DNA of 64,000 nt from Gemmatimonadota bacterium (GCA_022825725.1 JAJDWE010000055.1:28919-92918), one strand, 5' to 3'. Shown: positions 7,451-24,172, counted from the stretch's first letter. Numbers and translations: made by a program. Notes: generated by a model from the letters alone, not told the origin.

Positions 7451-8701
7451 CTATCCGCCGGCCATCGAGTCGAGGAACTCCTGGTTCGTTTCCGTGCGCT
7501 GCAGCCGCTCGATCATGAACTGAATCGCCTCGGCCGGCGGCATGTCGGAGAGGAAGTTCCGCAGCAGGTACATCCGGTTGAGTTCGACCTCGTTCAGGAG
7601 GAGTTCCTCCTTGCGCGTGCTCGAGCGGTTGAGGTCGATCGCGGGGTAGATCCGCTTGTCGGAGATCTGGCGGTCCAGGAGAACCTCGCTGTTCCCCGTG
7701 CCCTTGAACTCCTCGAAGATGACCTCGTCCATCCGACTGCCCGTCTCGATGAGCGCCGTCGCGATGATCGTGAGGCTGCCGCCCTCTTCGATGTTCCGCG
7801 CCGCGCCGAAGAACCGCTTGGGCCTGTGGAGCGCGTTCGCATCCACGCCGCCGGAGAGGATCTTGCCCGAGTGGGGGACCGTCGTGTTGTAGGCCCGCGC
7901 GAGTCGCGTGATCGAGTCGAGGAGGACCACGACATCGTGCTGGTATTCGACGAGCCGCTTCGCCTTCTCGATCACCATCTCCGCCACCTGAGTGTGGCGG
8001 TCCGCGGGTTCATCGAAGGTGGATGAGATGATCTCCGCCGGAACGTTCTCCTCCATGTCCGTGACCTCTTCGGGCCGCTCGTCGATGAGGAGCACGATCA
8101 CCTTCGCGTCCGGCTGGTTCTCCACGATCGCGTTCGCGATCTTCTGCAGCAGGATCGTCTTCCCGGCCTTGGGCGGCGAGACGATGAGGCTGCGCTGCCC
8201 TTTGCCGATCGGCGCGATGAGGTCGAGAATCCGCATCGACACGTCGCCGTCTTCCTGCTCGAGGACGAGCCGTTCCTCCGGATACCGCGGTCGCAGGTTG
8301 TCGAACGCGATCCGGTGCTTCGCCTTGTCCGGGTCCACGCCGTTCAGCGTCTCCACCTTCAGCAGGGCGAGGTAGCGCTCTCCCTCCTTCGGCGGCCGCA
8401 CGCGGCCCTGGATGGTGTCTCCCGTCCGCATGTCGAAGCGCTTGATCTGCGACGGGGAGACGTAGATGTCGTCCGGGCCGTACAGGTAGTTCCAGTCCTG
8501 GCTCCTCAGAAAGCCGTAACCCTCCGGCAGAATCTCGAGGACGCCCTCGCCCCGGAGGACGATGTCGGAATCGAGGAGATTCTGCTCGATCCGAAAGATC
8601 AGGTCCTGTTTTCGAAGGCCCGAGAAGTTGTGAATGTCGAGTTCTTCGGCCATGTCATGAAGTTCGCCGATCGACTTCGACTTGAGTTCGGCGATGTCCA
8701 T
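7451..8701 (-). CDS. rho: transcription termination factor Rho
   Basis: N-terminal [23 protein letters not shown] (Rho N-domain), an OB/CSD region, and Walker A in [11 protein letters not shown], with full-length colinearity to Rho. The true start is the ATG at 8701 preceded by GGAGGAAGG. The annotated ORF extends to 8812 but its N-terminal 37 aa are not Rho-like. Confidence 0.9.
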
Positions 8702-9254
8702 CGCCTTCCTCCGGAAGAGAGTGAGCCGGGCTGCAGTCATGCCGCGTGCGGCATGATCGGTTCGTGAGGTGTCCTGCTTGCGGCCGGGGGATGTGGTCCG
8801 AGGTGGACCCACCGACCATAATGGTGCCGCCGGGCACGGTCAAGGCGACCGCGCCTCAACGATCACTGCGACCCTCGAGCGCCGGATGGCCAGACACAAT
8901 CGCGAAGGAAGAGGACTCGACCAGCTCGGCAATCTCTGGCGGATAAGCTATCAGCCCGACTGGTTCCGTTTGTTGAAGTTGTCGCGGCCGGTGCCCGGCG
9001 GGCGCCGCTCCTCCCGCACGCTGTGCCGCAATCCGGCGCGTACGGCGGACGCGGAACCCGGCCGATCCGTGCGGACGCGGATCACGGCTGCGGATGGGTC
9101 CGTCGACGTGGCGGTCTCCATCGAAGACCGCGACCAGGTCGTCGACCATGTCATCATCGGGATTCGCCGAAAGCGCGGCAGGAAGACGGAACTGCTCAAG
9201 TTCGCGGTCCACGGCGGCCTTCCGAAGCGGAGGCTCTAGGAGGGCTACGGACGG

Positions 9255-10238
9255 CTAGAAGACGCGGACGCGCAGCCAGCGCGACGGGTTGTAGCCGAGA
9301 TCTTCCGCCAGTCCGGCGGCCGCCGTGCGCAGGGCGGCGAGTTGACGTCGGATTTCCTCATCCATCAGCGCCCGGCCCGCCGTTCCCTCGCCGCGGTCCA
9401 GCCGCTCGGTGATCGCCGAGAGTCGCGACATCACCGCGTCCAGCGCCTCGAGCGTCGTTTCCAGATTCTGAACGGCGCTCGCCATTTGGGGCGCGGCCTC
9501 CCAGGTCGCCAGCCGTCCATGCACCCGTCGCGCCGCCGCGCTCACGAGCGTGTCCGTCGCGAGCCCGACGAGCGAGGAGCGCCGAAGGTCTAGCTGGAGC
9601 AGTTCCTCCAGCGACTCGAGACTGCCTTGCAGTCCGGCCAGCGTGCCCGGATCCTCGCGAAAGCGGGCGAGCGAGCCCTGGTCCGAACCAAGCACGTCCC
9701 GCGCCTCGGTGGCGTCGACTTCGAGCGTGCGCACCGCCTGTAGCAGCGAATCCGACAGCGCCATGACCGTCTCCGGATCGATCGGCGGACCGGAAGCCCG
9801 CAGCGTGTCCGCGTAATTCCAGGGGGGCGCGGAGCCCGAGCCCGGGTTCACGGAGAGGACGACGGGCGCCACGAGATCCGATGGCCGGACGTCCGCGGTG
9901 GCATCCGCCCGCAAGATGGGCTCGGCGACCCGGTCGATGACGGCGTCGATGATGACGTGGCTCTCGAACGGCCCATCGCGGTCGCTCTCTTCGGGAGGCT
10001 GGAAAGAGACCGACAGGACGCGCCCCACCGCCCTCCCCGCCACCCAGACCGCGGAACCCGGCCCGAGCCCCTCGGCCGAATGGGCCAGCGCCGTGATTCG
10101 CGGGCCCTCGAGCGTCGCGCGGACGATGAGTTCGATGACGGAGACTGCGGCCGCAAGGACGATCGCGCAGGCAGTCAGGATCAGGCCCCGTCGGGCCCGG
10201 GTGCGCGCGGCGTCTGAAGTGAGGTCCGTTCGGATCAT
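9255..10238 (-). CDS. MlaD/MCE-family protein (outer-membrane lipid asymmetry / Mce domain)
   Basis: N-terminal TM (LILTACAIVLAAAVSVIELIV) followed by an Mce/MlaD domain (RITALAHSAEGLGPGSAVWVAGRAVGRV) and a long C-terminal helical region. Confidence 0.7.
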   Translation of the reverse strand: MIRTDLTSDAARTRARRGLILTACAIVLAAAVSVIELIVRATLEGPRITALAHSAEGLGPGSAVWVAGRAVGRVLSVSFQPPEESDRDGPFESHVIIDAVIDRVAEPILRADATADVRPSDLVAPVVLSVNPGSGSAPPWNYADTLRASGPPIDPETVMALSDSLLQAVRTLEVDATEARDVLGSDQGSLARFREDPGTLAGLQGSLESLEELLQLDLRRSSLVGLATDTLVSAAARRVHGRLATWEAAPQMASAVQNLETTLEALDAVMSRLSAITERLDRGEGTAGRALMDEEIRRQLAALRTAAAGLAEDLGYNPSRWLRVRVF

Positions 10239-11444: not shown

Positions 11445-12461
11445 TTGAACGGTTTGGGTTTGAAGAACGAAACGGTCGACATAACGATCATCGGCGGCGG
11501 TCCGACCGGACTCTACGGATCCTTCTACGCCGGCATGCGCGGCGTCTCGGCCCGCATCATTGATGTCCTCCCCGAACTCGGAGGTCAGCTGACGGCGCTG
11601 TACCCCGAAAAGGATGTCTTCGACGTCGCCGGCTTCCCCCGGGTGCTCGCCAAGGATCTTGCGCGGGAACTCGTCACGCAGGGCCTGCAGTTCGACGCGG
11701 AGGTCTGCCTCGAGGAGCGCGTCCTCGAACTCAATCCGGGCAACGGCGGCTTCGATCTTCGCACGAACAAGGGGCCGCGGCCCACACGCACCGTCGTCAT
11801 TGCCGGGGGCAAGGGCGCTTTCAAGAGCCGGACGCTACGCGTGCCGGGGTGGGATGAGTTCCTGAACCGGGGCCTCGTGACGAACGTGAAAGAGCCAGCG
11901 ATGTTCCGCGGGAAACGCGTTCTCCTTGTCGGCGGGGGCGACTCCGCATTCGACTGGAGTTGGGCGTTGCGCGAGATCGCCGGCGAACTCACGCATATCC
12001 ACCGCACGGACCGCTATCGGGCTCACGAGAGCACGGTCGCGCAGGTCGAGGGTGCGCATGAACGGGGCGAACTCGAACTCCGCACCTTCTGCACCGTGAC
12101 GGAGATCCACGGGGGCGACCGGGTCGAGGCCGCGACGATCCAGCACACGAAGACGAAGGAAACGGAGCGAATCGAGGTGGACGACGTCATCGCGCTGATC
12201 GGCTTCGTTCCGAACATCGGGCCGATCGCCGAATGGGGGCTCGAGTTGCAGAAGAGGTGCATTGTGGTGGACTCGCGCATGCGCACGAACATCCCGGGCG
12301 TCTATGCCGCGGGGGACATCGCCACCTACGACGGGAAGCTGGAATTGATCTCGACCGGTTTCGGGGAGGCCGCGATCGCGGTGAACAACGCGGTCCACCA
12401 CATCGACCCGACCGCGAAGGTGAACCCGGGCCACTCGACCGACTACAAGGTCTTCAAGTAG
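11445..12461 (+). CDS. ferredoxin--NADP(+) reductase, thioredoxin-reductase-like type 2 (YumC family)
   Basis: FAD site ITIIGGGPTGLYGSFYAGMRG, NADP site LLVGGGDSAFDW, a GD motif in AAGDIATY, and full-length similarity to YumC-type FNR. Confidence 0.8.
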   Translation: MNGLGLKNETVDITIIGGGPTGLYGSFYAGMRGVSARIIDVLPELGGQLTALYPEKDVFDVAGFPRVLAKDLARELVTQGLQFDAEVCLEERVLELNPGNGGFDLRTNKGPRPTRTVVIAGGKGAFKSRTLRVPGWDEFLNRGLVTNVKEPAMFRGKRVLLVGGGDSAFDWSWALREIAGELTHIHRTDRYRAHESTVAQVEGAHERGELELRTFCTVTEIHGGDRVEAATIQHTKTKETERIEVDDVIALIGFVPNIGPIAEWGLELQKRCIVVDSRMRTNIPGVYAAGDIATYDGKLELISTGFGEAAIAVNNAVHHIDPTAKVNPGHSTDYKVFK

Positions 12462-12482: not shown

Positions 12483-15347
12483 CTAGAGCCGCCGCCCGGC
12501 GAGTTCGACGAGCCGGGCGCCGGATCCCGCGAGGTTCTCCCTCGCCCAGTCTCGCACATCCTCCTCGTGCGTGAATAGGATGACCTGGGTCGAGCCCGCG
12601 AGCGCGTGCAGCGTCTGCAGCACCGCCTGTTTCCGGACCGCGTCGGACGCGCCCACGACATCGTCGAGGATGAGGGGGCAGGTCTCGCCCTCCCGGGTGA
12701 GGTGCCGTGAGAGCGCGAACCTGAGCAGCAGGTAGATCTGCTCCGCCGTGCCGTGCGAGAGCAGTTCGGCGGAGCGCCAGCGCCCCCCCCGCGTCCGGAC
12801 CTCGACGAGCAGATTCTCCGGGTCGATGCGGCATCCGGTGTAGCGGCCGTCCGTCACTCCGGGAAGCCATTCGAGGACCGTCCGCGTCAGAACGGGCGCG
12901 ATGTCGCGCAGCACGCGCTCCTGCGCCTCTTCGAGGAATCCGATCGTGCAGTCCAGCGTGTCCTTGAGACGCGCGATCCTCGCCTGTTCCCGCTCGGCCG
13001 CCGCCAGCGCGTCCTCCGCGTCGGCGACGCTGGGCAGATGGTGCTCACGTTCGGTGAGCTGGCCGCCGGCGCGCAGTACCTCCTCGCGGGCCGCCTCCGC
13101 TTCCCGCCTCAGATTCTCCAGCGTCTCCCCGGTCGGCCGCCCCGCCCGAGCTTCGACGAGGAGGTCCGCCCCGAGCCGGTCGACGAGCCCGCTGGCCCGG
13201 AGGCGGCGTTGCTCCACTTCGTCCGCGAACTCCCCCAGCGTCCGCTCGCCGAGCAACTGTTGCAGGCGATCCCATGATTCGTTGCGTTCGCCGGCTTCCG
13301 CGAGCATCCGCTCCCGGCCCGCGCGCCACTCCTCCAGCGCGGTCGCCAGCTCCTCGGGGTCTTCGGCGGTCACGCCGATCTGCGACCCGGCTTCACGCAG
13401 CTTGTTCACGGCATCATCGGCCCGCTCCGACCGATGTGAGTGCCGCGTCTCTGCCGCCAGGCGCCGAGCCCGTTCGTCACTCCACTCTCGGCGCTGCTCC
13501 GCGGTCCGCCGTTCGAGTTCGTCCAACTCGCTCCGGGTGACGCCCCGGGTCCTCAACTCAGCGAGCGGGGCTCCGGCTGCATCCGCGAGGAGGGCATCGG
13601 CTGCGGCCCGAAGCCGATCCGTCTCGGCGGCAAGTGCGTCGAAGGATGAACCGGCAAGCAGCCCCTGAAGCTCATCCCACTGCGAGCCCCGCCGCGCCGC
13701 CTCTTCCCTTCCGGCCTGCCGGGATGCGGCCTGGCTGCGCAGCGACTCCGCGAGCGCTTCCGGTTCGAGCGAACCCGCGTCCTCCCCGCCGGCGAATTCA
13801 CGGAGGCGGTCGATCGCGTCGCGCCGAGTCCGCAGTTCGGCCTCGTACCGCCTGTGGGCCGAGCGTCCGGTCTCGAGTTCGCGCCGGAGACTGTCGCGCC
13901 GCACGTCCAGCGCAAGCGCAATCTCCGAGCCGTCGGCCCGCGTTCTCGCCAGTCGGTGAGACAGGACGCCTCCCGCTCCGACCGCGAACAGGATCAACCC
14001 CGCGGAGCGCGACTCCGGCCCCAGCAGCGCGAGGACGAGACCTCCGATCGTCACGGCCGCCGAAAGAGCCAGCCACGCCGCGGCTCGCGCGCGTGAACGT
14101 TCCCGGGGGGGCGCCGGCCTCCTCTCTTCGAGATCGGCCAGATCCCCCTCGATTTCCTCCAACCTCCGCCCCGCGGGCCGCTCGACCTCGGAAAGCGACT
14201 CCCAGGCGCGGAGCGCGTCGCGGATCTCCGCCAGGCGCGTGTCCTCCTCCGGGGAAACCCGGGGGCCGCCCTCCGGGAAGAGCGCCTGCAGCTCACGCGC
14301 ACCGGCGAGGCGAGCCTCGACTTCTGCGGCAGCGGCCTCCGCGACGACTGCCCGCGCGGCCGCCAGCGCCGCATCGCCGCCGTCGATCCTCTCCTCGATC
14401 TCTCGCGCCGAGGGCCCCGTCAGCTCCACCGGATCGGGGAGGTTGCGCCACGTCGTGAGCGCTTCGGTGACCGCCCGCGTGAGCCCGCCGCCCTCGGGGA
14501 TCGGGTGGGGCGCCCCCTCGGGGAACGCCTCGTGCAGGGCCCGCGCCTCCCGCAGCCGCTCCGCGTGCCTCTCCGCCTCGGCGCTCGCGAGCGCGGCCTC
14601 CGCCGCCTCCACGCGGTGGCGGGCCTCCCTCGCCGCCCGCTCCAGCGTTTCGACCTCGGCGCGACGCTCCTGAAAGTCCCGGTGCGCCTCGCGGGCCGCC
14701 TCCAGAGCCTTGCGCGCCTCCGCGACCCGCCGCGCCGTCGTCATGAGCGGCTTCGTCGGAGCCCGGGTCGATCCGACGCGTTCCCGGAGAACCTCCTCGA
14801 GCCGCTGCAGCGCGGCGGCCGCCGTCTGGTCCACCCCCGCCGTCGCCGCCGCGCGCTGCATGTCCTCCTGCAGCGATTCGGGGTCGTCCCGGACCCTGAG
14901 GATGTCCGTCTGACGCACACAGGCGGTGGCGAGAAACGAGCGGCGGTTCAGGCCCAGCCACCGCGAGCCGTCCGGTGCCCCGTCGAACAGGATCTCGCCC
15001 GAATAGTCCCGTCCCGCGACGCTCATATCCTCGGCCGAACTCTCGATCCTTCCCGCGAGATCGTGCCTCAATTCCACGCGCCGTCCGTCCTCGAGCGCGA
15101 CGATGGCTCCGATTTCCCACTCGTCGTCGTCCCACGGCCTGTGGCGCTCCGCGAACCGCTTCTCCTCCTTCCGCATCGCCCCCTTGCCACGCCGCATGCC
15201 GCAGAGTCCGGCGTACAGCGCCGCGTGCCAGGACGATTTCCCCGCTTCGTTGCGGCCGAAGACGACGTTCATTCCCGGCGCCAGTTCCAGCGTCTCATCC
15301 CGGAAGGGGCCGAAGCGGTGGGCCGTCACGGACTCGAAGCGCATCAC
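12483..15347 (-). CDS. YhaN/SbcC-like SMC-family AAA ATPase with an internal transmembrane hairpin
   Basis: Walker A GRNEAGKSS at the N-terminus. At the C-terminus, a signature/D-loop region with Walker B LILDDVVGASD and an FTHEED H-loop. In between, a long Ala/Arg/Glu-rich coiled coil interrupted by two hydrophobic helices (AAAWLALSAAVTIGGLVLALLG...GLILFAVGAGGVLS, about aa 423-465). Its start overlaps the stop of the upstream Mre11-like gene (ATGA at 15344-15347). Confidence 0.8.
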   Translation of the reverse strand: MMRFESVTAHRFGPFRDETLELAPGMNVVFGRNEAGKSSWHAALYAGLCGMRRGKGAMRKEEKRFAERHRPWDDDEWEIGAIVALEDGRRVELRHDLAGRIESSAEDMSVAGRDYSGEILFDGAPDGSRWLGLNRRSFLATACVRQTDILRVRDDPESLQEDMQRAAATAGVDQTAAAALQRLEEVLRERVGSTRAPTKPLMTTARRVAEARKALEAAREAHRDFQERRAEVETLERAAREARHRVEAAEAALASAEAERHAERLREARALHEAFPEGAPHPIPEGGGLTRAVTEALTTWRNLPDPVELTGPSAREIEERIDGGDAALAAARAVVAEAAAAEVEARLAGARELQALFPEGGPRVSPEEDTRLAEIRDALRAWESLSEVERPAGRRLEEIEGDLADLEERRPAPPRERSRARAAAWLALSAAVTIGGLVLALLGPESRSAGLILFAVGAGGVLSHRLARTRADGSEIALALDVRRDSLRRELETGRSAHRRYEAELRTRRDAIDRLREFAGGEDAGSLEPEALAESLRSQAASRQAGREEAARRGSQWDELQGLLAGSSFDALAAETDRLRAAADALLADAAGAPLAELRTRGVTRSELDELERRTAEQRREWSDERARRLAAETRHSHRSERADDAVNKLREAGSQIGVTAEDPEELATALEEWRAGRERMLAEAGERNESWDRLQQLLGERTLGEFADEVEQRRLRASGLVDRLGADLLVEARAGRPTGETLENLRREAEAAREEVLRAGGQLTEREHHLPSVADAEDALAAAEREQARIARLKDTLDCTIGFLEEAQERVLRDIAPVLTRTVLEWLPGVTDGRYTGCRIDPENLLVEVRTRGGRWRSAELLSHGTAEQIYLLLRFALSRHLTREGETCPLILDDVVGASDAVRKQAVLQTLHALAGSTQVILFTHEEDVRDWARENLAGSGARLVELAGRRL

Positions 15348-16459
15348 AGCACCTCGAGGTCGTCGCGTCCGTCGAGCGCCCGGAGTCCCATCCGCAGCAC
15401 ACGGCGCTTCTCATCTTCCGCCAACTCCGCTCCCATCACATCCTCGACGAACCGTCCTCTCACGGTGGGCTCCCCGCGGATCTCTTCGAGGTCGTACGCC
15501 AGGTGCAGTTCGGGTTTCCGGATCTGCACGGCGTCGAATGTTTCGAGCAACTGCTCGCGGATCGTGTCCTCCTGGAGGTCGAGCGACGGCTCGAGGTCGC
15601 CGCACACCGTGAGGCGCGCGAGTCCCGCGAGGCTCTCCGTCGTCGCGCGCAGCGTATCCCGGATCTGCTGGCGGCTCGTGAGGCCCGTGACATCGAGCCG
15701 CAGATCGTGAACCGGGGTGACCGCCACGACGCGGCGCTCGCGCGCGACCTCGCCCTCTGCGTCGATCGTCGCCACGACGGGTCCGCGCTCCCCTTCCTCT
15801 CCGAACTGCAGCGGGTCGGGGTTGCCGGGATAGGTGTGATGGGCGCCGTCCGCCGGCCGGTGATAATGGCCGAGGAACGCGTGATTCAGCCCGCTCTCCG
15901 GGATCTCGTCGGTCTCGAAGGGGGCGTGCGGCGCCTTCCCTTCACCCTGTGCCGCGAGCCACGACCGTTCCGCTCCGTGAAAGAGCGCCACGTGCGCCCC
16001 CGCCCCGGAGACGCGGAAGCCGTCGCCGAGGAAGTTGTCCGTGTTGGCGGGAGCGCAGTGCGCGCCCCCCCAGAGCGTGATGCCGGGCGCGAGGGGGACC
16101 GCCTGCAGCGCCGCATCGCGAAAGATGTGAACATTCCCGCTCCATCCCTCTGTCGCGTAGACGCTCGTCGGCCCGTACCAGTCGTGATTGCCGGGCGCGA
16201 TGTAGACGGGCACCGGGTCGAGGGAGGCGAAGGTCTGCCGCAGGAAGTTCGCCGTGTCGAGCGTGACGCGGTCGTGCTCGTACAGGTCGCCGCCGCAGAA
16301 GAGTGCGTCCGCGCCGGTCGAGCGCACGAGTTCCACGATCGCGAGCAGGGTATCGCGAAGCGCCTCGCGCCGCCGCCGCGCCACATCGCCCGTCGCCTCG
16401 CACCACGCGAACGGGGAGTCGAGATGGAGGTCGGCGAAGTGGACGATCGTCCGTTGCAC
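15344..16459 (-). CDS. YhaO/SbcD-like Mre11-family calcineurin-type metallophosphoesterase (nuclease)
   Basis: MQRTIVHFADLHLD (motif I), GGDLYEH (motif II), GNHD (motif III) and GHYH..., in the order typical of the SbcD/Mre11 fold. Translationally coupled to the downstream SMC-like ATPase. Confidence 0.8.
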   Translation of the reverse strand: MQRTIVHFADLHLDSPFAWCEATGDVARRRREALRDTLLAIVELVRSTGADALFCGGDLYEHDRVTLDTANFLRQTFASLDPVPVYIAPGNHDWYGPTSVYATEGWSGNVHIFRDAALQAVPLAPGITLWGGAHCAPANTDNFLGDGFRVSGAGAHVALFHGAERSWLAAQGEGKAPHAPFETDEIPESGLNHAFLGHYHRPADGAHHTYPGNPDPLQFGEEGERGPVVATIDAEGEVARERRVVAVTPVHDLRLDVTGLTSRQQIRDTLRATTESLAGLARLTVCGDLEPSLDLQEDTIREQLLETFDAVQIRKPELHLAYDLEEIRGEPTVRGRFVEDVMGAELAEDEKRRVLRMGLRALDGRDDLEVL

Positions 16460-16461
16460 AG

Positions 16462-17622
16462 TCAGGTGAGAAACGCCTCGATGCGGCCCCAGTTCGCCTC
16501 CGCGTCGGAGGCTCCGAGTTCCACGAGCGCCCGGATGTACTCGCTCTCGAACAGGAGATAACTCAGGAAGTCGGCGGTCTTGATGTCCGGCGTTCCCAAG
16601 CCTCGCACGAGAAACCTGAGCGCCGGGGGAAGTTCGATCTCGAAGTCGCGGGCGAGCTTCCCGATGTCCCGGGAGGGTCTCAGGATGAGCAGGTCGACGC
16701 GGCGCAGACCCTGGCTCTCGGAGACCTCGCGGGGGAGGCGGTCGACGAGGCAGTTGATCCGGCGCAGCGCGGCGGCGTCCCAGTCCAGCGTGTCGAGAAA
16801 GACCGAGTTCAGCAGCAGGCCCAGGACTCTCGCCGGCGGGGGATATCCGGTCGTGTCCGGCGCCCGCGCCTCCAGTTCGGATCGCCGGTAACGGGCCGAG
16901 ATCGTGAAGATGCGGTCCGCCCCCATGTGAATCGCGGGCGCCAGCGGCGCAGCGGTGCGGAAGCTCCCGTCCCCGTAATACTGCTGACCGAGCTTGATGG
17001 CCGGGAACACGAGCGGGATCGACGCGGAGGCGAGGATGTGGTCCACCGAAATGTCCGTCCGCACGAGTCGGTAGTGTGTGCTCGCGCGCCCGGGCCCCGA
17101 CTGCGGTTCGCCCTGCACGAAGAGGACCGTGCGCCCGGTCTGGTACGACATCGCGGTGAGACCGACCGCTTCGAGGTCCCCGGCCCGGATCCGGGCGGCG
17201 ATCTCTCCGCGGCCGACATCGCGCTCGATGAATTCCCGCAGCGGCGACGTGTCGACGAGGCTCTGGAAACGGGGGCTCAGCCCGGTCCCGCCGCCCAGCA
17301 GGGATCCCCCCATCCGCAGACCCACCTTGAGCAGGGAAGCGGGGTTGGTGCGCAGCACTTCCTCGGTCGTGAGCGAGAGCCAGCGGCGCTTCAGTGCCTG
17401 CGTCGCGCCGTGCAGATTTCCGTTGTAGGCGGCGAGGAACCCCACGTTGATTGCACCCGCCGAGACGCCGGTGAGGAGGGGGATCCGAAGCCCGGGCAGC
17501 CGTCTGCCGACATAGCTCAGCACGCCGGTCTGGTAGGCGGCCCTCGCGCCGCCGCCCGAGAGGGCGAAGGCCAGCTTCCCCCGCGCGGCGCCGGAAGCGC
17601 CGCTCCCAGGGGCTCTCGTCAC
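16462..17622 (-). CDS. patatin-like phospholipase
   Basis: Gly-rich oxyanion loop FALSGGGARAAYQTG (GGxR), nucleophile elbow GVSAG (GxSxG) and a catalytic Asp in a DGS/DGG context (YGDGSF). Its stop lies 2 nt from the start of the Mre11-like gene. Confidence 0.8.
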   Translation of the reverse strand: MTRAPGSGASGAARGKLAFALSGGGARAAYQTGVLSYVGRRLPGLRIPLLTGVSAGAINVGFLAAYNGNLHGATQALKRRWLSLTTEEVLRTNPASLLKVGLRMGGSLLGGGTGLSPRFQSLVDTSPLREFIERDVGRGEIAARIRAGDLEAVGLTAMSYQTGRTVLFVQGEPQSGPGRASTHYRLVRTDISVDHILASASIPLVFPAIKLGQQYYGDGSFRTAAPLAPAIHMGADRIFTISARYRRSELEARAPDTTGYPPPARVLGLLLNSVFLDTLDWDAAALRRINCLVDRLPREVSESQGLRRVDLLILRPSRDIGKLARDFEIELPPALRFLVRGLGTPDIKTADFLSYLLFESEYIRALVELGASDAEANWGRIEAFLT

Positions 17623-17635
17623 GCCGGTCCCCGCG

Positions 17636-18181
17636 TCAGGACCGTCCGCCGGGTCGGCCCAGGAGTTGCCGGTGCCAGGAACGGGCCGCCGGCCGCTCGA
17701 GTTCGCCCGCCCGGAGGGCCGCCAACGTGTCGATGGTCGGATCGAAGACGGGAGTCGCGTCGCCGATCGCTCCGGTCAGCGCCCGCGCCCGGAACTCCGA
17801 TCGCGCGCAACTCTCGATTGCGCCGGACTCGTCCCGGTAGAACACGCGTGTGCTGTCGAGAAGCGAGCAGCCCAGGCGTTCCTCGAGCGCGCCCAGCCGC
17901 CGGGACATCGCGTCGATCGAGCACCCGGACGCGGGTGCCGAAGCTTCGTCCACGGCGACGACCGCGAAACGGTCTTCGATCCATTCCACGCCCGCCCGCA
18001 GTGCCGCCCCGTGCGCGGTCCAGATGTCGACGAACGCGCGCAGGTCGACCATCAGCGCTTCGCGCTCCTCGGAGGTCAGCGGACGGTCCGCCCCGTAGAT
18101 CCAGACACGGGCGGAATCCGGAAGCGATGTCAGCGGAACACTCATGTCGGGACCATACGTCGGCCCGCGACCTCCCGCCAA
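17636..18181 (-). CDS. hypothetical protein. The ORF starts with TTG at 18181; an internal ATG at 18145 (MSVPLTSL...) is an alternative start.
   Basis: 181-aa ORF 13 nt upstream of the patatin gene and 25 nt downstream of the ABC permease, on the same strand. No Walker motif or other recognisable motif. Confidence 0.45.
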   Translation of the reverse strand: MAGGRGPTYGPDMSVPLTSLPDSARVWIYGADRPLTSEEREALMVDLRAFVDIWTAHGAALRAGVEWIEDRFAVVAVDEASAPASGCSIDAMSRRLGALEERLGCSLLDSTRVFYRDESGAIESCARSEFRARALTGAIGDATPVFDPTIDTLAALRAGELERPAARSWHRQLLGRPGGRS

Positions 18182-18206
18182 CCCGGGCCTGGCAGGCCGC
18201 GGGCCG

Positions 18207-19418
18207 CTATTCGTACCGCAGCGCTACGATCGGATCGAGGCTGGCCGCGCGCCGGGCGGGCCAGAGGCCGAAGAACACGCCGACCGCTGCGGCGAACACC
18301 ACGGCGAGGCCGATGGCCTGCGGCGCGATGGCCATCGTCCAGCCCGCCGACCGGGAGAGCATCTCGGCCGCGCCGTAGGCGAACGCGACGCCGAGAATCC
18401 CGCCCGTCATGCAGAGCGTCGTGGCTTCGAGCAGGAACTGGAGCAGGACCGCCTTTCTCGTGGCGCCGAGCGCCTTGCGCACGCCGATCTCCTTCGTCCG
18501 CTCGGTGACCGACACCAGCATGATGTTCATGATCCCGATGCCCCCGACGAGGAGGCTGACCGCGGCGATCCCGGCGAGCAGCATCGTGAACGTCTGTGTC
18601 GTCTCCTGCGCCATTTCGAGGAACTGCACGCTGTCCGAGATCCAGAAGTCGTTCTCCCGTCCCAGGGGAAGGCGGTGCTCACGCCGCAGCACGTCCTCGA
18701 TCTGCACCATCGCAACGGGGATCGCGGCCTCACTCTCGACGACGACCTTGAACTGGCTCACGCGATCGGTCCCGAGCAATCGGAACTGCGCCGTCTCCAG
18801 CGGGACGAAGATCTGCTCGTCCTGGTTGAACCAGCCCGATCCGCCCTTTTCTTCCAGCACGCCCACGACTTCGAAGGAGATGTTCCGGATGGAGATCGTC
18901 CGGCCGACGAGTTCGGCGGCGTCGGTGTTCAGCACCGCCGGGACCGCGCCCCCGAGCACGGCGACGCGCCGCCGGCCGCGGTCCTCGGATTCATCGAAGA
19001 AGCGGCCGAGCTGAAGCGTGTGATTCTCGACAGCCGCGTAGTTCGGCGTCGTACCGAGAATCCGTACGCTCGCGTTGTTGCGTCCGAACTGGACCTGCAA
19101 CTGTCCCTGCATCTCCGGGGCGACCTCCACGAGGGCCGGGGCCCCCCGCCGCACCGCTTCGACGTCTTCGGTCGTCAACCGGGCGTTCGACCCGCCGCGC
19201 ACGCCGCGGAACATCCCCTGCCCGGGGCGGACCGTGAGCACGTTGGTGCCGAGAGACTCGATCTGGTTCTCGACCTGCCGCTGGGCGCCCTCCCCGAGGG
19301 CGACCATCGTGATCACGGCGCCCACTCCGATCACGATCCCGAGCATGGTCAGGAAGGAGCGCAGCTTGTTGGCGCGGATCGCATCCATCGCGACCCGGAG
19401 AATCTCGAAGAAGATCAT
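18207..19418 (-). CDS. ABC transporter permease, MacB/FtsX family (permease only)
   Basis: N-terminal TM (LRSFLTMLGIVIGVGAVITMVAL), a large periplasmic MacB-PCD-like domain and a C-terminal FtsX 3-TM bundle (TMLLAGIAAVSLLVGGIGIMNIMLVSVTERTKEIGVRKALGA...). 403 aa with no nucleotide-binding domain. Confidence 0.8.
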   Translation of the reverse strand: MIFFEILRVAMDAIRANKLRSFLTMLGIVIGVGAVITMVALGEGAQRQVENQIESLGTNVLTVRPGQGMFRGVRGGSNARLTTEDVEAVRRGAPALVEVAPEMQGQLQVQFGRNNASVRILGTTPNYAAVENHTLQLGRFFDESEDRGRRRVAVLGGAVPAVLNTDAAELVGRTISIRNISFEVVGVLEEKGGSGWFNQDEQIFVPLETAQFRLLGTDRVSQFKVVVESEAAIPVAMVQIEDVLRREHRLPLGRENDFWISDSVQFLEMAQETTQTFTMLLAGIAAVSLLVGGIGIMNIMLVSVTERTKEIGVRKALGATRKAVLLQFLLEATTLCMTGGILGVAFAYGAAEMLSRSAGWTMAIAPQAIGLAVVFAAAVGVFFGLWPARRAASLDPIVALRYE

Positions 19419-19425
19419 CGGATCA

Positions 19426-20982
19426 TCACCCTCCCCCGATGCCCGGCAGCCCCGACCGGCTGCGGATTCGGTCCAGGAACTCCTGCTGCGCGATGAGCGA
19501 GGTGGGCACTGCGACGATCTCCTCGCCCTCCTCGAGTCCGCGGACGATCTGCGTGTGATCGAAGTCGCTGAGGCCGATCATGACGGGCTTCACGTCGAGG
19601 AGGCCGTTCGCATCGTACCTGAACACGAAGGCCGGGCGGGGCTCGTCGGGCCGCCGCGCCGGGCCGCCCCGGCCGCCCCCGGGTCCGCCGCCTCCCTGGT
19701 TGCGGAACTGCTGCATCATCCGCCGCCGCTCCTCGTCGGACATGTTCTGGAAGACCCGCATCCGCTCTTCCTGCGACATCGACTGGAACTCCGACATCGG
19801 AACCCCGCCGATCATCGCCTCCTCCTCGCCCTCCGCCGCTCCGTCCTCCGCCGCACCCTCCGGCCGATCCTGGCTCTGGAAGTCGCGCAGCAGCGCGTTG
19901 ACATCGGCGTCGATCTCGAGGGCCCGGACGATCTGGGCGGCCTCCTGCTGGGACTTGATGCCGCTGTTCGCCACCGCGAGCACGTCCTCCTGCCGCCCGA
20001 TCACGACTTCGACGTCCGCGTTCATCCCCGGCCGCAGCAGGTCCTCCTCGTTCGAGATGCGCGTGAGCACGGCGAACATGGTCACGTTTTGTTCGACCAC
20101 CGCCTGCGGTTCGATCTTGAGGACGGACCCCCGGAAGGTCCGGTTGGGATACGCTTCCACGGTGATGTCGGCGGGCAGTCCCGGCTGGAGCCGCCCGATG
20201 TCCGTTTCGTCGACGAGCATGCGCACCTGGACCTCGGTGAGGTCGGCCATCCGCATCAGCACGGTTCCGCCGGTGAGGTCGCGCGTCCCCGTGACGACCT
20301 GCCCCTGTTCCACCGTCCGCTCCACGATGGTGCCCGTGATCGGGGCCCGGAGCGTCACGTCGTCCAGCTTGTCCTCGGCCAGTTCGAGGTTGGTCGTCGC
20401 GCGGACCAGTGAAGCTCTCGCGTTCGCCGCCGAGAGGATCGCGCTCTCCAGCTCCTCCGAGGTCACGATATCGGACTCGTGGAGCGCTTCCACCCGCTCA
20501 AGCTGGCGTTCCGCGACATAGGCCTGGGCCTCGGCCACGTCCAGATCGGCCTGCGCCTGGGCGTGCGCGTTGTTCACGTCGCGCGGGTCGATCCGCACGA
20601 GGAGCGTTCCCAGTTCGACGTTGTCCCCGAGTTCGACGGGTAGCTGGAGAACCTCGCCTCCCGCCTGCGACTTGACCTCGATCACGCGGATCGGTTCGAC
20701 CGTCCCGGTCGCCTCGACGCTGGAGACGATGGTCTGGCGCCCCGCGGTCAGCGTTTGGAGTGTCTGCTCGGGTTCGTTGGCCTCGCCGGTCGCACAACCT
20801 GCGACCGCGAGTCCAAGCGCCGTGAGGACCGTGGCGTGGCCCGGGGAACCGCCTCGCAGGCGGGGGCGACGCCGGCAGCGTTCGAATATGGACATCGGAA
20901 TCTCGTCTCGTGTCGGGTCCGTGAAGGGCCAGCGGGGCGGCGAAACCGCGCCGTCGTAGCACGCTGAGAGGACACCCCGCAC
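19426..20982 (-). CDS. efflux membrane-fusion (periplasmic adaptor) lipoprotein, MacA/HlyD family
   Basis: Lipobox LGLAVAGC near the N-terminus (a likely start is the Met at about 20895). Coiled-coil hairpin, lipoyl/β-barrel regions and a C-terminal membrane-proximal domain (FVFRYDANGLLDVKPVMIGLSDFDHTQIVRGL). An unusual Met/Gln/Arg-rich and Gly-rich insertion lies before the C-terminal domain. Confidence 0.75.
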   Translation of the reverse strand: MRGVLSACYDGAVSPPRWPFTDPTRDEIPMSIFERCRRRPRLRGGSPGHATVLTALGLAVAGCATGEANEPEQTLQTLTAGRQTIVSSVEATGTVEPIRVIEVKSQAGGEVLQLPVELGDNVELGTLLVRIDPRDVNNAHAQAQADLDVAEAQAYVAERQLERVEALHESDIVTSEELESAILSAANARASLVRATTNLELAEDKLDDVTLRAPITGTIVERTVEQGQVVTGTRDLTGGTVLMRMADLTEVQVRMLVDETDIGRLQPGLPADITVEAYPNRTFRGSVLKIEPQAVVEQNVTMFAVLTRISNEEDLLRPGMNADVEVVIGRQEDVLAVANSGIKSQQEAAQIVRALEIDADVNALLRDFQSQDRPEGAAEDGAAEGEEEAMIGGVPMSEFQSMSQEERMRVFQNMSDEERRRMMQQFRNQGGGGPGGGRGGPARRPDEPRPAFVFRYDANGLLDVKPVMIGLSDFDHTQIVRGLEEGEEIVAVPTSLIAQQEFLDRIRSRSGLPGIGGG

Positions 20983-21023
20983 AGGTCCGACGTTGAAGAG
21001 ATTACGCCACGCGACGCGAGCGG

Positions 21024-22385
21024 TCAGGGTTGCGGCTGGTCGAGCCTCCGGCCGAGGAGGGCCTCGATTCCCGCGAGCGCCGCCTCGTACTGGAACCGGC
21101 CGCTGACGAGATCGACCTCCGCCTGCGTGAGCGTGATCTGCGCGTCCTGGAGTTCGAGGATGGTGGCGAGGCCGAGCTGGTACCGCTCCTGCACGACCCG
21201 GAGGCTCTCCTCGCTGAGTTCGACGTTCCGCTCTGCGAGATCCACCCCCGCGAGCGCGGACTGGGCCGTCGCGTAGCGCGCGTCGAGCAGTGAACTGATG
21301 TTCAGTCGCGCCGCCCGTTCGGATTGCCGGGCCTGGTCCGCCGAGGCCCGGGCGCGGAACACCTGGGTCTCGCGCTGGAAACCGTTGAAGAGGGGATAGC
21401 TGCCGCGAAGCGAAAAGGACCAGGAGCGGTTGGAGGGAGGGAACTCCTGGTTCGCCCAGCCGTAGCCCGCGCCGACCGTAATCGACGGCAGGTAGCTGGA
21501 GCGCGCGCTCGACACCGCCGCCTCGGCGGCCTCGACGGCCGCGGAGGCGGCCTGCAGCGCTGGAGCCGTCACATCGGCCATCGCGAACAGTTCGTCACGC
21601 GTGAAGGGGATCGCGGCCATCGCGAGTTCCGCCTCGGCGGTCGGCCCCACGAGGGTTTCGGAGCCGACGACCTCGGTGAGTTCGAAGGTCCGCGTGCGTG
21701 CGTTGTTCTCCGCGTTCAGAAGCGCGAGTTGCGCGTTGTTGAGGTCCACCTGCGAGCGGAGGGAGTCCGAGCGCGTCGCCCGTCCCAGCTCCAGCTGCTG
21801 CCTGACGAACTCGAGCTGGTCCGCCTGCCGCTGGACGCGGCGTTCCTCGACGGCGACGAGTTCACGTGCCGCGACGTTCGCCGAGTACGCCTGTTTCACC
21901 GCCTGGATGACCTGGAACTCGGCCTCGCGATAGCGGGCGTTCTGTTCGACGATTCCCAGACGGGCGCCCTTCAGGTCCGTGAACCGGCTCCAGCCGTTGA
22001 AGAGCGTGTATCCGGCGTTGATCTGAGTGGAGTAGCTCGTGGCGACGATCCCCTGGCTGAGGGCGTCGAGCCGTCCCGTCGATGAGTTCGAATAACCGAA
22101 GCTCATGTTGACTGACGGGAGGAGCTGGCCGATCGCGCTCAACTGGTTGTGCTCGGCCATCTCGATCTGCGAGTAGGCCTGGAGCAGCTGAGGGTTGCGG
22201 CGCAGCGCGATCTCGACCGCTTCATCGACCGTGATCTGGCGGACGTTGTCGCTCGCCTGCACCTGCGCCTCGGCCATCCGGGGCGACGCTCCCGCCAGCA
22301 GGATCGCCGGCAGCAGGACAAACCCCCATCGACGAAGACCGGCGCTCGGCCGGCCTCCGCACCCTGATCTATGTCGAATGGTCAT
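21024..22385 (-). CDS. TolC-family outer-membrane efflux protein
   Basis: 454 aa from the ATG at 22385 (MTIRHRS..., verified, GAGGAAAC SD). Signal peptide ending AEAQ, then the two-repeat TolC architecture with α-helical coiled-coil segments. The upstream 49 aa of the annotated ORF are non-homologous. Confidence 0.8.
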   Translation of the reverse strand: MTIRHRSGCGGRPSAGLRRWGFVLLPAILLAGASPRMAEAQVQASDNVRQITVDEAVEIALRRNPQLLQAYSQIEMAEHNQLSAIGQLLPSVNMSFGYSNSSTGRLDALSQGIVATSYSTQINAGYTLFNGWSRFTDLKGARLGIVEQNARYREAEFQVIQAVKQAYSANVAARELVAVEERRVQRQADQLEFVRQQLELGRATRSDSLRSQVDLNNAQLALLNAENNARTRTFELTEVVGSETLVGPTAEAELAMAAIPFTRDELFAMADVTAPALQAASAAVEAAEAAVSSARSSYLPSITVGAGYGWANQEFPPSNRSWSFSLRGSYPLFNGFQRETQVFRARASADQARQSERAARLNISSLLDARYATAQSALAGVDLAERNVELSEESLRVVQERYQLGLATILELQDAQITLTQAEVDLVSGRFQYEAALAGIEALLGRRLDQPQP

Positions 22386-22428
22386 CGTTTCCTCGCCCCC
22401 TGAGGGGCTGATTGACGTCTCTCGGTTG

Positions 22429-22890
22429 TCAGTTGTTTCGCTGCGGGTCGTCACGCCCTTGGGACCCCCGTTCGCCGCCGCGCTCCCGCCCGTCGCCGTA
22501 GCGCTGCCGCAGCAACTGCCGATAATCCTCACCCTGCTCCTCCGTCAGCGCCGACTCGATCTGCGTCCGGACCGAATCCATCAACGTCCGGTAGCTCCCG
22601 CGCAACGTCCGCATCCCGTCGCGGTAGTGATCGAGGAAGCCCTCGATCTGTGACCGTTGCTCGGCAGTCAAACCCAGTTCATCGGCGAATTGCTCGATCG
22701 TGGTCTGCCGTCCCCGCGACCCGTCATCGCGATCCCGCGTTTCGGGAGACGTAGTCTCCGCTGGCGGCTCGCCCACGGCTGCGTCGGCGAACAGATCGAG
22801 GCGGTCCGCCGCCACGCCGACTGCGGCGCCCGCCGCGAAGACGAGCGTCAGGAGCAGGATCGCCCGGAATCTCGAAGTGTCCATACGCAC
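22429..22890 (-). CDS. periplasmic LTXXQ-motif protein, CpxP/Spy/ZraP family
   Basis: Signal peptide (FRAILLLTLVFAAGAAVGVAA), two LTXXQ motifs (LGLTAEQRSQIEGFL, ALTEEQGEDYRQLL) and a charged C-terminal tail. It sits directly downstream of the sigma/anti-sigma pair. Confidence 0.65.
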   Translation of the reverse strand: MRMDTSRFRAILLLTLVFAAGAAVGVAADRLDLFADAAVGEPPAETTSPETRDRDDGSRGRQTTIEQFADELGLTAEQRSQIEGFLDHYRDGMRTLRGSYRTLMDSVRTQIESALTEEQGEDYRQLLRQRYGDGRERGGERGSQGRDDPQRNN

Positions 22891-22915
22891 CCGGTTCGTG
22901 TCGCGTTTCAGCGAG

Positions 22916-23359
22916 TTACGGATTGATGAGCGCGGCCGTCAGCACCGCGTCGCGGCTCGGTTCGACGAGGTCGATGAGCAGCGCGGGCGGGGCTTCGGCG
23001 TCCGGTGCCAGCGAACGCACCAGCCCGATCGGCTCCGGATCCACGTCCGCGGCGAGCGCGGGCGCATCCGGCAGGGAGATGCGATACAGCAGAACGCCGG
23101 CCGCGACGAGCAAACCCGCGGCCAGCGGCGCGAGCGCCGCGGACCAGCTTGCGGTCACGTCGAGCCAGGAGAGAGGCCGCCGCTCGAACAGCGCCTCCGC
23201 CGCAGCCATCACGCTCTGGCGCAGGCGGCGGCGCGTGACGTCATCGGGCCGCAGGGGCTCGAGATACTCGGCCCACGCGGGCCCGCGCCCGCCGTCCCGA
23301 TTCTGATCTCTCCTATTCGTCCTCATCTGTTCCTCCGGCGCCCGAGGCGGGCGCGTCAC
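22916..23359 (-). CDS. putative membrane-anchored anti-sigma factor
   Basis: Overlaps the 3' end of the ECF sigma gene by 47 nt. Charged N-terminus, single TM (ALAPLAAGLLVAAGVLLY) and a short periplasmic tail. Confidence 0.55.
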   Translation of the reverse strand: MTRPPRAPEEQMRTNRRDQNRDGGRGPAWAEYLEPLRPDDVTRRRLRQSVMAAAEALFERRPLSWLDVTASWSAALAPLAAGLLVAAGVLLYRISLPDAPALAADVDPEPIGLVRSLAPDAEAPPALLIDLVEPSRDAVLTAALINP

Positions 23360-23972
23360 CGAGAAGCCGGCGCAGCGCGTGCCTGCCGTGATGAAGGTTC
23401 GCCCTCGAAGTTCCGACTGCGATCCCGAGAATCTTCGCGATCTCCGCGTGGTCGTACCCTTCGAGGTCGTACATCATGACTGCCGTTCTCTGTCGTTCCG
23501 GAAGCTGCCCGAGTGCGTCGAGCACCCGCTTCCGTGCGTGTCTCCGCTCGAATTCACGATGCGGATCGTCCCGCGACGCCGCCGTGTCCGTCAGCTCCGA
23601 ATGCGTCCGCAGAAGCTCACGCCGCCGGAGGTTCAGGCACGTGCTCCGCAGCACGCGATAGAACCACGGACCGAAACGGCTTCCCGGCCGCAACTGCCCG
23701 ATCCGCTCAAGGGCGCGAATGAACGCGGCCTGCACCGCGTCTTCCGCGTCCTGCTCGTGGCGAAGAATCGACAGCGCCACCGCGTAGGCCGGGTCCGTGT
23801 ATCTCGTCACGAACAGGGAAAACGCCCGCGAATCGCCGGCCTGCACGGCCTCCACGAGGCCGGGCTCGTCCGCGCCGGGATCCGGCCGCTCCGCAGGTCC
23901 GGAGCCGGGGCCGGTCGCGTCGCCCGGCGATCCGTTACGCGTTCGCGTTTCCTCCGCCAAAGGCATCCCCAT
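23313..23972 (-). CDS. ECF (group IV) RNA polymerase sigma-70 factor
   Basis: Region 2 (FSLFVTRYTDPAYAVALSILRHEQDAEDAVQAAFIRA) and region 4 HTH (ERQRTAVMMYDLEGYDHAEIAKILGIAVGTSRANLHHGRHALRRLL). Confidence 0.8.
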   Translation of the reverse strand: MGMPLAEETRTRNGSPGDATGPGSGPAERPDPGADEPGLVEAVQAGDSRAFSLFVTRYTDPAYAVALSILRHEQDAEDAVQAAFIRALERIGQLRPGSRFGPWFYRVLRSTCLNLRRRELLRTHSELTDTAASRDDPHREFERRHARKRVLDALGQLPERQRTAVMMYDLEGYDHAEIAKILGIAVGTSRANLHHGRHALRRLLGDAPASGAGGTDEDE

Positions 23973-24172
23973 CGCTTGGGTAACACGCCCTCGATGCCGG
24001 CCGTTGCACCGGCTCCGGGCGGCGTTTGCCCCGGCGCTTGTTCCTTCACCGTGGCCGTCGCATCTTCGGCTCCGTGAACAACGAAACGCAAGCCCGGCCC
24101 GCCGCCGCCGAAACGCCCGATCGAGCCCACGCTCTGGCCGGCCGAACCCTCATCCAGGAACGCATCCGCGGT

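Follow-up and report, generated by a model that had tools for sequence, protein, structure and literature searches.

Does a tight run of co-directional genes in a compact bacterial genome amount to a single system? The question is raised by a 64,000-nucleotide (nt) stretch of DNA from a Gemmatimonadota bacterium (GCA_022825725.1 JAJDWE010000055.1:28919-92918; this whole stretch is the window in what follows), in which ten minus-strand open reading frames (ORFs) follow one another from position 23972 down to 12483. They encode, in order, an extracytoplasmic function (ECF) sigma factor, a small membrane protein at the anti-sigma position, a CpxP/Spy-like LTXXQ protein, a TolC-family outer membrane factor (OEP), a membrane fusion protein (MFP, the adaptor), a MacB-type permease, a protein of 169 amino acids (aa) referred to here as hyp169, a patatin-like phospholipase, an Mre11-like nuclease, and an SMC-like ATPase. 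A preliminary description of this train saw one or two transcription units that place a lipase/nuclease module, together with an efflux system, under an envelope-stress sigma factor, and it considered the combination unusual. Our comparison with related genomes suggests another answer. The train is probably a composite of three units in a Candidatus Palauibacter-like chromosome rather than one unusual system: an ECF sigma factor module with its pump, a hyp169-patatin pair, and a two-gene nuclease/SMC cassette. The combination looks unusual mainly because these three units are packed head to tail.

RESULTS

Gene content and spacing of the train

Gene identities were obtained from Pfam and NCBIfam profile scans of the window ORFs, and start codons were refined by orthologue lengths and alignments. 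The ORF listing, the third-position G+C content (of coding type in all ten genes), and the domain scans agree with the order and identities first described, all on the minus strand. The G+C content of the window is about 70%, and its proteins share 96 to 99% identity with those encoded in Candidatus Palauibacter sp. genomes, from a marine group of Gemmatimonadota. Refinement set the starts of the anti-sigma and OEP genes at ATG 23326 and ATG 22388, respectively, and that of hyp169 at ATG 18145 rather than TTG 18181. The MFP start was placed at ATG 20895 rather than GTG 20982; the ATG precedes a lipobox and is kept in the alignment.

With these starts, seven of the nine junctions are overlapping or no longer than 40 nt. 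The sigma and anti-sigma genes overlap by 14 nt and the Mre11-like and SMC-like genes by 4 nt (GTGA), while the gaps measure 31 nt from anti-sigma to LTXXQ, 40 nt from LTXXQ to OEP, 7 nt from MFP to permease, 13 nt from hyp169 to patatin, and 2 nt from patatin to the Mre11-like gene. The two exceptions are the OEP-MFP gap (128 nt) and the permease-hyp169 gap (61 nt), and both of these sizeable gaps contain conserved promoter-like footprints. These two junctions contradict the statement that no gap exceeds 45 nt, and the "several overlaps" reduce to the two given above. Ten co-directional genes in a row are statistically unremarkable for a compact bacterial genome. Terminator-like signals inside the train are no more frequent than by chance (7 versus 4.7 expected in a consensus scan), and no Rfam elements were found between positions 11000 and 25000.

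ECF-type footprints upstream of the sigma factor and adaptor genes

When the sequences preceding the sigma gene were aligned among loci, GTGCAACG-N15-GTGTTA emerged, and alignment of the OEP-MFP gap yielded TTCAACG-N15-GTGTCC. The core common to both sites, hereafter P-sigma and P-mfp (Table 1), is CAACG-N15-GTGT. A first pattern, GTGCAAC...GTGTTA with up to three mismatches, had missed P-mfp, and the core became visible only from the OEP-MFP alignment. In the 64-kb window, CAACG-N14-16-GTGT occurs three times, where 0.73 matches would be expected, and two of these occurrences (23983-24006 and 20972-20995) fall into the relevant intergenic regions, on the strand of the genes. In position-weight scans, with or without spacer columns, P-sigma and P-mfp are the only sites above 12 bits. 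The third core match (53752-53774, plus strand), with a 14-nt spacer, lies inside a gene for a 1204-aa protein; its weight-matrix score is under 12 bits, and it is probably fortuitous.

Fourteen distinct related genomes carry the two sites in matching locations, with the spacing fixed at 15 nt and the spacer sequence variable. At the equivalent positions, P-sigma is kept in loci L001-L015, L020, L033, and L061, and P-mfp in L001-L006, L008-L015, L020, L033, and L061; in L046, which is devoid of the sigma-to-OEP genes, no ECF-type site was found upstream of the MFP gene. The preliminary description had pointed to the regions upstream of 23972 and of 22385 as places to look for an ECF promoter. 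The motif is indeed present directly before the sigma gene and kept in relatives, and its second copy lies instead upstream of the MFP gene, at 20968-20999. As a sequence motif, P-sigma carries the AAC-containing -35 element upstream of the factor's own gene that is indicative of autoregulation. Since P-sigma ends 8 nt before the ATG, the leader would be very short or absent. The conservation of both copies among relatives gives good sequence support to the control of the efflux system by the sigma factor.

Conservation of the block in related genomes

Patatin homologues were traced to their contigs, and all window proteins were compared by tblastn with 80 genome loci retrieved by means of a hyp169 alignment. 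The block of eight genes that begins with sigma and ends with patatin is unbroken and runs in one direction in 15 distinct genomes, one of which is that of the window. These genomes, which are part of the Palauibacter and Longimicrobiales-like lineage, span 49 to 97% patatin identity and reach down to 66% sigma identity. Only in the window and in relatives at the genus level (L001, L008-L013, and the metagenomic loci L093 and L096) does the nuclease/SMC pair directly follow patatin on its strand. In L002, L005, L006, L014, L015, L016, and L063, the pair converges with patatin and shares the direction of the thioredoxin-reductase-like gene trxB. Four unrelated genes stand between patatin and the pair in L007, the distance downstream of patatin is about 1.1 kb in L046 and L060, and L004 has no such pair. 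A synteny break at 18181/18207, between permease and hyp169, had been named as an outcome that would speak against a common unit. None was seen there within the pump-bearing lineage, and the break falls at 16459/16462 instead.

These data bear directly on the view that the ten genes form one or two ECF-driven operons, in which envelope stress would switch on pump, phospholipase, and nuclease/SMC genes together as one functional system. In its favor, the ten genes share one direction, overlaps or gaps of at most 31 nt are found at six of the nine junctions, no terminator-like signal exceeds chance, an ECF-type motif heads the train, and the eight-gene block is conserved; moreover, the patatin and Mre11-like genes are separated by only 2 nt, so that at least these genes would share a transcript. 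However, the only two sizeable gaps hold conserved internal promoter footprints, and the last two genes are a lineage-specific addition whose equivalents in sister lineages switch strand, lie at a distance, or are absent. Furthermore, the hyp169 gene is away from any pump in Gemmatimonadaceae. This view is thus unlikely. From the transcriptional scheme first proposed, ECF control of the efflux genes is supported by sequence, while the two conserved internal footprints argue against a single ten-gene unit.

The hyp169-patatin pair and its sigma-70-like footprint

The third footprint, P-hyp, lies in the permease-hyp169 gap and is sigma-70-like. It was found only by aligning intergenic regions: it scores 8/12, under the threshold of the sigma-70 consensus scan, which called no promoters in the sequence. 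TTGGCR-N18-TATGNT is unique in the window, versus 0.01 expected by chance, and it is kept in 11 loci (L001-L003 and L008-L015) that represent 10 distinct genomes, L002 and L003 being duplicates. The permease-hyp169 spacer around it measures between -4 and 295 nt and cannot be aligned elsewhere. Since a conserved sigma-70-like footprint occupies this junction, the lipase and nuclease genes are probably independent of the ECF sigma factor. This footprint, together with the separate nature of the nuclease/SMC pair described below, speaks against the earlier placement of a lipase/nuclease module under an envelope-stress sigma factor. A hairpin after the permease stop (-41.6 kcal/mol) was considered as a terminator or attenuator and rejected, as it is not kept even in relatives of 96 to 99% identity; hairpin covariation around P-hyp is weak and inconsistent.

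The sigma and hyp169 genes start 6 to 8 nt past the -10 elements of their footprints (23972-23986 and 18145-18157, minus strand), which implies that their mRNAs would be leaderless or nearly leaderless in this genus. More distant relatives have longer leaders for both genes.

The patatin has intact catalytic motifs (GGGxR, GxSxG, and DG), and its orthologues are found in the same block down to 49% identity. The hyp169 family is large, with about 2978 clusters at 50% identity (homologues in loci L017-L089). It has the invariant motifs SGCSID, W..H, and TPVFD and no P-loop, despite its NCBI name, and its predicted structure is a confident ferredoxin-like model with no solved homologue. The domain is found fused to DUF2911 and to rhodanese (the latter in one cluster); no fusions to patatin or transporter domains were found. 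The possibility that hyp169 is the missing ATPase of the pump was considered and rejected, as the protein has no Walker A or ABC (ATP-binding cassette) signature motif. The homologues of Gemmatimonadaceae, at about 45 to 50% identity, have no pump or patatin within 10 kb.

Could the pump and the phospholipase pair be functionally unrelated, their adjacency being a frozen order in a strongly syntenic region of the core genome? The whole neighborhood is syntenic (etfBA, the block, trxB, CDP-alcohol transferase, SSB, MlaD, and Rho), the hyp169 gene has its own promoter footprint, and its Gemmatimonadaceae homologue is located elsewhere, near a Na+/H+ exchanger gene in several loci. Yet insertions and losses have spared the MFP-permease-hyp169-patatin core: the four genes inserted in L007 lie after patatin, and the loss of the sigma-to-OEP genes in L046 stops short of MFP. 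In addition, the core is co-directional in every locus of the lineage, with hyp169-patatin gaps of 0 to about 120 nt. We regard a purely frozen order as rather improbable.

A widespread nuclease/SMC cassette

The Mre11-like protein shows weak matches to TIGR00619 sbcD and to Mre11/SbcD structures. The SMC-like ATPase has a central hydrophobic segment at about aa 422-443, and the six SMC-like versions examined all have such a segment in the middle of the coiled coil and none has a CxxC hook; the L007 version contains one off-centre CxxC.

The affinity of the cassette is foreign. The Mre11-like protein of the window is only 26 to 29% identical to the syntenic copies of L002, L005, L006, and L007, which are 49 to 67% identical to one another and track the patatin tree, and it is 62 to 69% identical to many proteins elsewhere, one of which comes from a Dehalococcoidia genome. 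The pair of the window type is 48 to 69% identical to copies in unrelated genomes. On three such contigs, the two-gene cassette lies amid Rieske oxygenase genes, in an island with RES and CBASS (cyclic oligonucleotide-based antiphage signaling system) genes, and amid metabolic genes, respectively. A metagenome scan provided 46 cassette loci with at least 1.5 kb of upstream sequence. Patatin is lacking at 44 of them, and the two loci with patatin are Palauibacter-like. The nuclease-SMC pairing is kept in 28 of the 33 loci with enough downstream sequence, and the G+C content of the metagenomic loci ranges from 0.45 to 0.76.

We conclude from these comparisons that the nuclease/SMC pair appears to be a self-contained, widespread two-gene cassette of which patatin is no part. 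We also conclude that a foreign version of this cassette appears to have replaced an older pair, in the same slot and in the opposite orientation, in the ancestor of the sampled Palauibacter genomes. The apparent patatin/Mre11/SMC module vanishes on comparison with relatives: the pair follows the direction of patatin in genus-level relatives only, bears little resemblance to the syntenic pair of the sister lineages, and elsewhere almost always occurs with no patatin.

One of the cassette relatives deserves a separate mention. In a Dehalococcoidia metagenome-assembled genome (L091, 725-6633), a 64% identical cassette is found beside SMODS, ThiF, Prok-JAB, and SAVED-TIR genes, a CBASS-like set, and near a RES-domain gene and an HTH/M78 (helix-turn-helix/M78) pair, in a defence-island context.

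The patatin and the membrane-associated SbcE/F-like pair could be imagined as an anti-phage or anti-plasmid module parked by the pump. As in Lamassu or CBASS, it would couple a lipase effector to a DNA sensor of the SMC type. The island just described would fit this idea, as would the partial PADLOC matches of the ATPase to mad3 (1.3e-16) and LmuB (9.3e-12), the replacement of the cassette by a distant homologue, the fast evolution of the ATPase (62 to 91% identity within the genus versus 81 to 98% for the nuclease), and the persistence of a nuclease/SMC pair beside patatin across the lineage. However, PADLOC finds nothing for the patatin and, for the Mre11-like protein, only a weak match to PDC-S10 (E = 0.0084). 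The patatin was inherited vertically with the pump and not with the cassette, is missing at the great majority of cassette loci elsewhere (44/46), and is convergent with the pair in most sister lineages. Moreover, two of the three inspected cassette contexts are ordinary metabolic neighborhoods, and the closest characterized relatives, SbcE/SbcF (YhaN/YhaO) of B. subtilis, act in double-strand-break repair (PMC2811018). A defence role of this kind is improbable.

We give very little credence to a last alternative, in which the adaptor, the ATPase-less permease, the Cys-containing hyp169, and the patatin would make up an ECF-switched envelope-lipid surveillance machine that includes the membrane-associated SbcE/F-like pair; if it were true, the in-place replacement of the pair would result from selection that maintains a nuclease/SMC partner next to the lipase, and the family named "ABC transporter ATPase" would represent a new kind of cytoplasmic partner for membrane transporters.

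Sigma factor module

The sigma factor contains sigma regions 2 and 4 only and matches ECF models, as expected for an ECF (group 4) factor. For the 136-aa protein encoded next to it and six orthologues, no Pfam family was matched, and no zf-HC2, RskA, or CnrY-type domain was found. Among seven orthologues of the LTXXQ protein, PF07813 was matched in all, weakly (best E-value, 4.5e-05), and PF13801 Metal_resist in two.

In most sister lineages, the interval from etfB to the sigma gene of the train contains a second, divergent ECF module with genes for a sigma factor, a zf-HC2 anti-sigma, and a Metal_resist protein (L003, 2757-3344; L005, 2719-3315; L006, 2903-3517; L007, 2972-3553; all on the minus strand). 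The intergenic region that the two modules share in these lineages also contains another conserved motif, such as GACGGTAAGAC...ATGTTAAG. The second module has been lost from the window (23973-24172) and from the other Palauibacter genomes.

Efflux pump

The permease aligns only to the membrane half of E. coli MacB, positions 254-646 of 648 (NF007826 MacB, 3.3e-74). No ABC signature LSGGQ occurs in any frame of the 64-kb window, so the permease is an orphan at the scale of the region; the only in-gene Walker A is that of the SMC-like gene. An ABC ATPase was also not found in 14 related blocks. Orphan FtsX-type permeases are common in Acidobacteriota and Gemmatimonadota ("ADOP" family), and in Pseudomonas, the ECF sigma factor PvdS controls a MacB-type pump, PvdRT-OpmQ.

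The adaptor has an insertion at about residues 395-460 of the long ORF, with repeated MSxEER motifs, which resemble the LTxxQ motifs of the neighboring periplasmic protein, and a Gly-rich stretch. Its orthologues are likewise about 100 aa longer than E. coli MacA. In L001, an 82%-identity relative, the permease (8117-9481) is called with 454 aa and overlaps the hyp169 start; similarity to the window permease ends at residue 343, which suggests a frameshift or an assembly error.

Upstream, the train is bounded by a divergent plus-strand gene, followed by etfBA; the other boundary is included in Table 1.

Table 1. Genes and promoter-like footprints of the train, listed in the direction of transcription, with the downstream neighbor
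Feature	Position	Strand	Basis and remarks
P-sigma, ECF-type promoter-like site	23979..24010	-	GGTGCAACG-N15-GTGTTA; ends 8 nt before the sigma ATG
ECF sigma factor, 219 aa	23313..23972	-	Sigma70_r2 and Sigma70_r4_2; TIGR02937 sigma70-ECF, 103 bits (cut-off, 42.9)
Putative anti-sigma, 136 aa, one transmembrane helix	22916..23326	-	By position and topology only; overlaps the sigma gene
CpxP/Spy-like periplasmic LTXXQ protein	22429..22884	-	N-terminal signal/anchor; two LTxxQ motifs; PF07813, 22.5 bits (gathering score, 24.3)
TolC-family outer membrane factor, 454 aa	21024..22388	-	Pfam OEP, two repeats, 204.9 bits; start fits 454-aa orthologues
P-mfp, ECF-type promoter-like site	20968..20999	-	TCTTCAACG-N15-GTGTCC; inside the OEP-MFP gap
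Membrane fusion (adaptor) lipoprotein, 489 aa	19426..20895	-	TIGR01730, 180 bits; HlyD_D23, HlyD_3; lipobox LAVAGC
MacB-type permease without nucleotide-binding domain	18207..19418	-	MacB_PCD, 165 bits; FtsX, 77 bits
P-hyp, sigma-70-like footprint	18152..18181	-	TTGGCG-N18-TATGGT; 6 nt before the hyp169 ATG
hyp169, 169-aa cytoplasmic protein	17636..18145	-	No Pfam match; NCBI name "ABC transporter ATPase"
Patatin-like phospholipase, 386 aa	16462..17622	-	PF01734, 79 bits; GGGAR, GVSAG, and DGS motifs; no signal peptide
SbcF/YhaO-like (Mre11/SbcD-type) metallophosphoesterase, 371 aa	15344..16459	-	Metallophos, 51.7 bits
SbcE/YhaN-like SMC-type ATPase, 954 aa	12483..15347	-	AAA_27/AAA_23 head; no CxxC hook
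Thioredoxin-reductase-like gene trxB	11445..12461	+	Pyr_redox_2; convergent with the train, marks its 3' boundary; syntenic in relatives

DISCUSSION

A probable composite of three units

Our survey favors three units of differing origin. In the first unit, a proposed envelope-stress module under the ECF sigma factor, the sigma factor itself, the membrane protein at the anti-sigma position, the CpxP/Spy-like protein, and the TolC-type channel would be read from an autoregulated P-sigma, and the adaptor lipoprotein and the MacB-type permease from P-mfp, a second copy of the same type of promoter. The sequence itself shows the gene identities, the pattern of synteny, the footprints as conserved sites, and the foreign affinity of the cassette; we infer that the footprints are active promoters, that this sigma factor uses the two ECF-type copies, any read-through between units, and all physiological roles. 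A periplasmic signal would free the sigma factor from the membrane protein, and both promoters would then fire. The output would be a periplasmic chaperone-like protein and a tripartite exporter, the ATPase of which would have to be encoded elsewhere.

The second unit would consist of hyp169 and the cytoplasmic patatin-like phospholipase, always found behind the pump in this lineage and read from their own P-hyp. Since this promoter is sigma-70-like, the unit is probably constitutive, perhaps boosted by read-through from P-mfp. The third unit, the SbcF/SbcE-like nuclease and SMC-ATPase cassette, was probably acquired horizontally by an ancestor of the sampled Palauibacter genomes, taking the slot of an older, distantly related pair. 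It now abuts the patatin stop and, as its gene spacing suggests, is most likely cotranscribed with patatin in this genus.

Several observations weigh against this reading. All three promoters are footprints, predicted from conservation, and no terminators were found between the units, which leaves room for one long read-through transcript from P-sigma. No known anti-sigma domain is recognized in the 136-aa protein encoded next to the sigma gene. In L007/L018, the most distant relative, P-sigma is present and P-mfp cannot be recognized. The two ECF-type sites of the window were part of the weight-matrix training set, so what counts in the position-weight scans is that no other hit occurs in the window. 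Finally, a nuclease/SMC pair stays by patatin in nearly all genomes of the lineage and was even replaced in the same slot. We treat this persistence as a coincidence, and there is a small chance that it reflects a real functional link.

Whatever the fate of the individual proposals, the locus offers a concrete candidate regulon for the uncultured marine order Palauibacterales, with one ECF sigma factor, two candidate copies of its promoter, and a MacB-type pump whose energizing ATPase is not in the locus. It also calls for caution with gene trains, as tight co-directional runs in compact, high-GC genomes can join units of differing origin and regulation. Three elements are worth keeping in view: the conserved twin ECF-type footprints, the ATPase-less MacB-type pump, and the uncharacterized hyp169 family with its misleading database name. 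Literature searches for patatin, MacB, and ECF together found nothing, and those for ECF, MacB, and anti-sigma together found nothing relevant.

Comparison with known systems

The head of the train resembles a published ECF architecture. In ECF281 and ECF290 (Casas-Pastor et al. 2021, PMC7826278), the sigma gene is followed by an anti-sigma gene at +1 and, at +2, by a gene for a CpxP-like "heavy-metal resistance" protein, and efflux operons under ECF control have a precedent in ECF291/CnrH, these three groups being derived from ECF20 (PMC7826278). The locus resembles ECF281, ECF290, and ECF291 in its order of sigma factor, membrane protein at +1, and, at +2, a putative CpxP-like LTXXQ protein with its weak PF07813 match, and it resembles ECF291 (CnrH) in having an efflux operon in the neighborhood. 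The promoter-like motif before the sigma gene itself suggests autoregulation here, as in the ECF20-derived groups. However, the +1 protein has no zf-HC2, RskA, or CnrY-type match, and the pump is a tripartite one of the MacB-type ABC family, not a resistance-nodulation-division (RND) metal pump; the comparison is with the published architecture.

The pump itself resembles MacAB-TolC of E. coli in its outer membrane factor, its periplasmic adaptor lipoprotein, and its permease with the MacB periplasmic core and the FtsX four-helix domain. In contrast to MacAB-TolC, neither this locus nor any related block has a nucleotide-binding domain, whether fused or in an adjacent gene; further differences are the long C-terminal low-complexity insertion of the adaptor and the ECF-type promoter-like site at the locus.

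The phospholipase shares PF01734, with its GGGxR, GxSxG, and DG motifs, and a predicted cytoplasmic location with patatin-like phospholipases of the RssA/YchK type, CapV of CBASS, and ExoU. In contrast to these, it has no cyclic-nucleotide system or secretion signal near it and has been inherited vertically within a pump-linked block.

The juxtaposition of an SMC-like ATPase with hydrolytic enzymes is reminiscent of Lamassu, and the partial PADLOC match to LmuB covers model positions 290-592. The match is nonetheless limited to this part of the LmuB model, no LmuA or LmuC equivalents are present to make up, with LmuB, the conserved unit of a Lamassu system, the ATPase is paired with an Mre11-type nuclease, and its association with the lipase is not conserved.

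The closest parallel for the last two genes is provided by SbcE/SbcF of B. subtilis (PMC2811018). As in that system, the nuclease gene comes first and the SMC-like ATPase gene second, the nuclease is of the SbcD/Mre11 type, and the ATPase combines an AAA_27-type head with long coiled coils and a hydrophobic central domain that lacks a CxxC zinc hook. The similarity is distant, seen only via Pfam, PDB, and NCBIfam profile matches; moreover, the pair stands behind a phospholipase gene and in a phylum of Gram-negative type.

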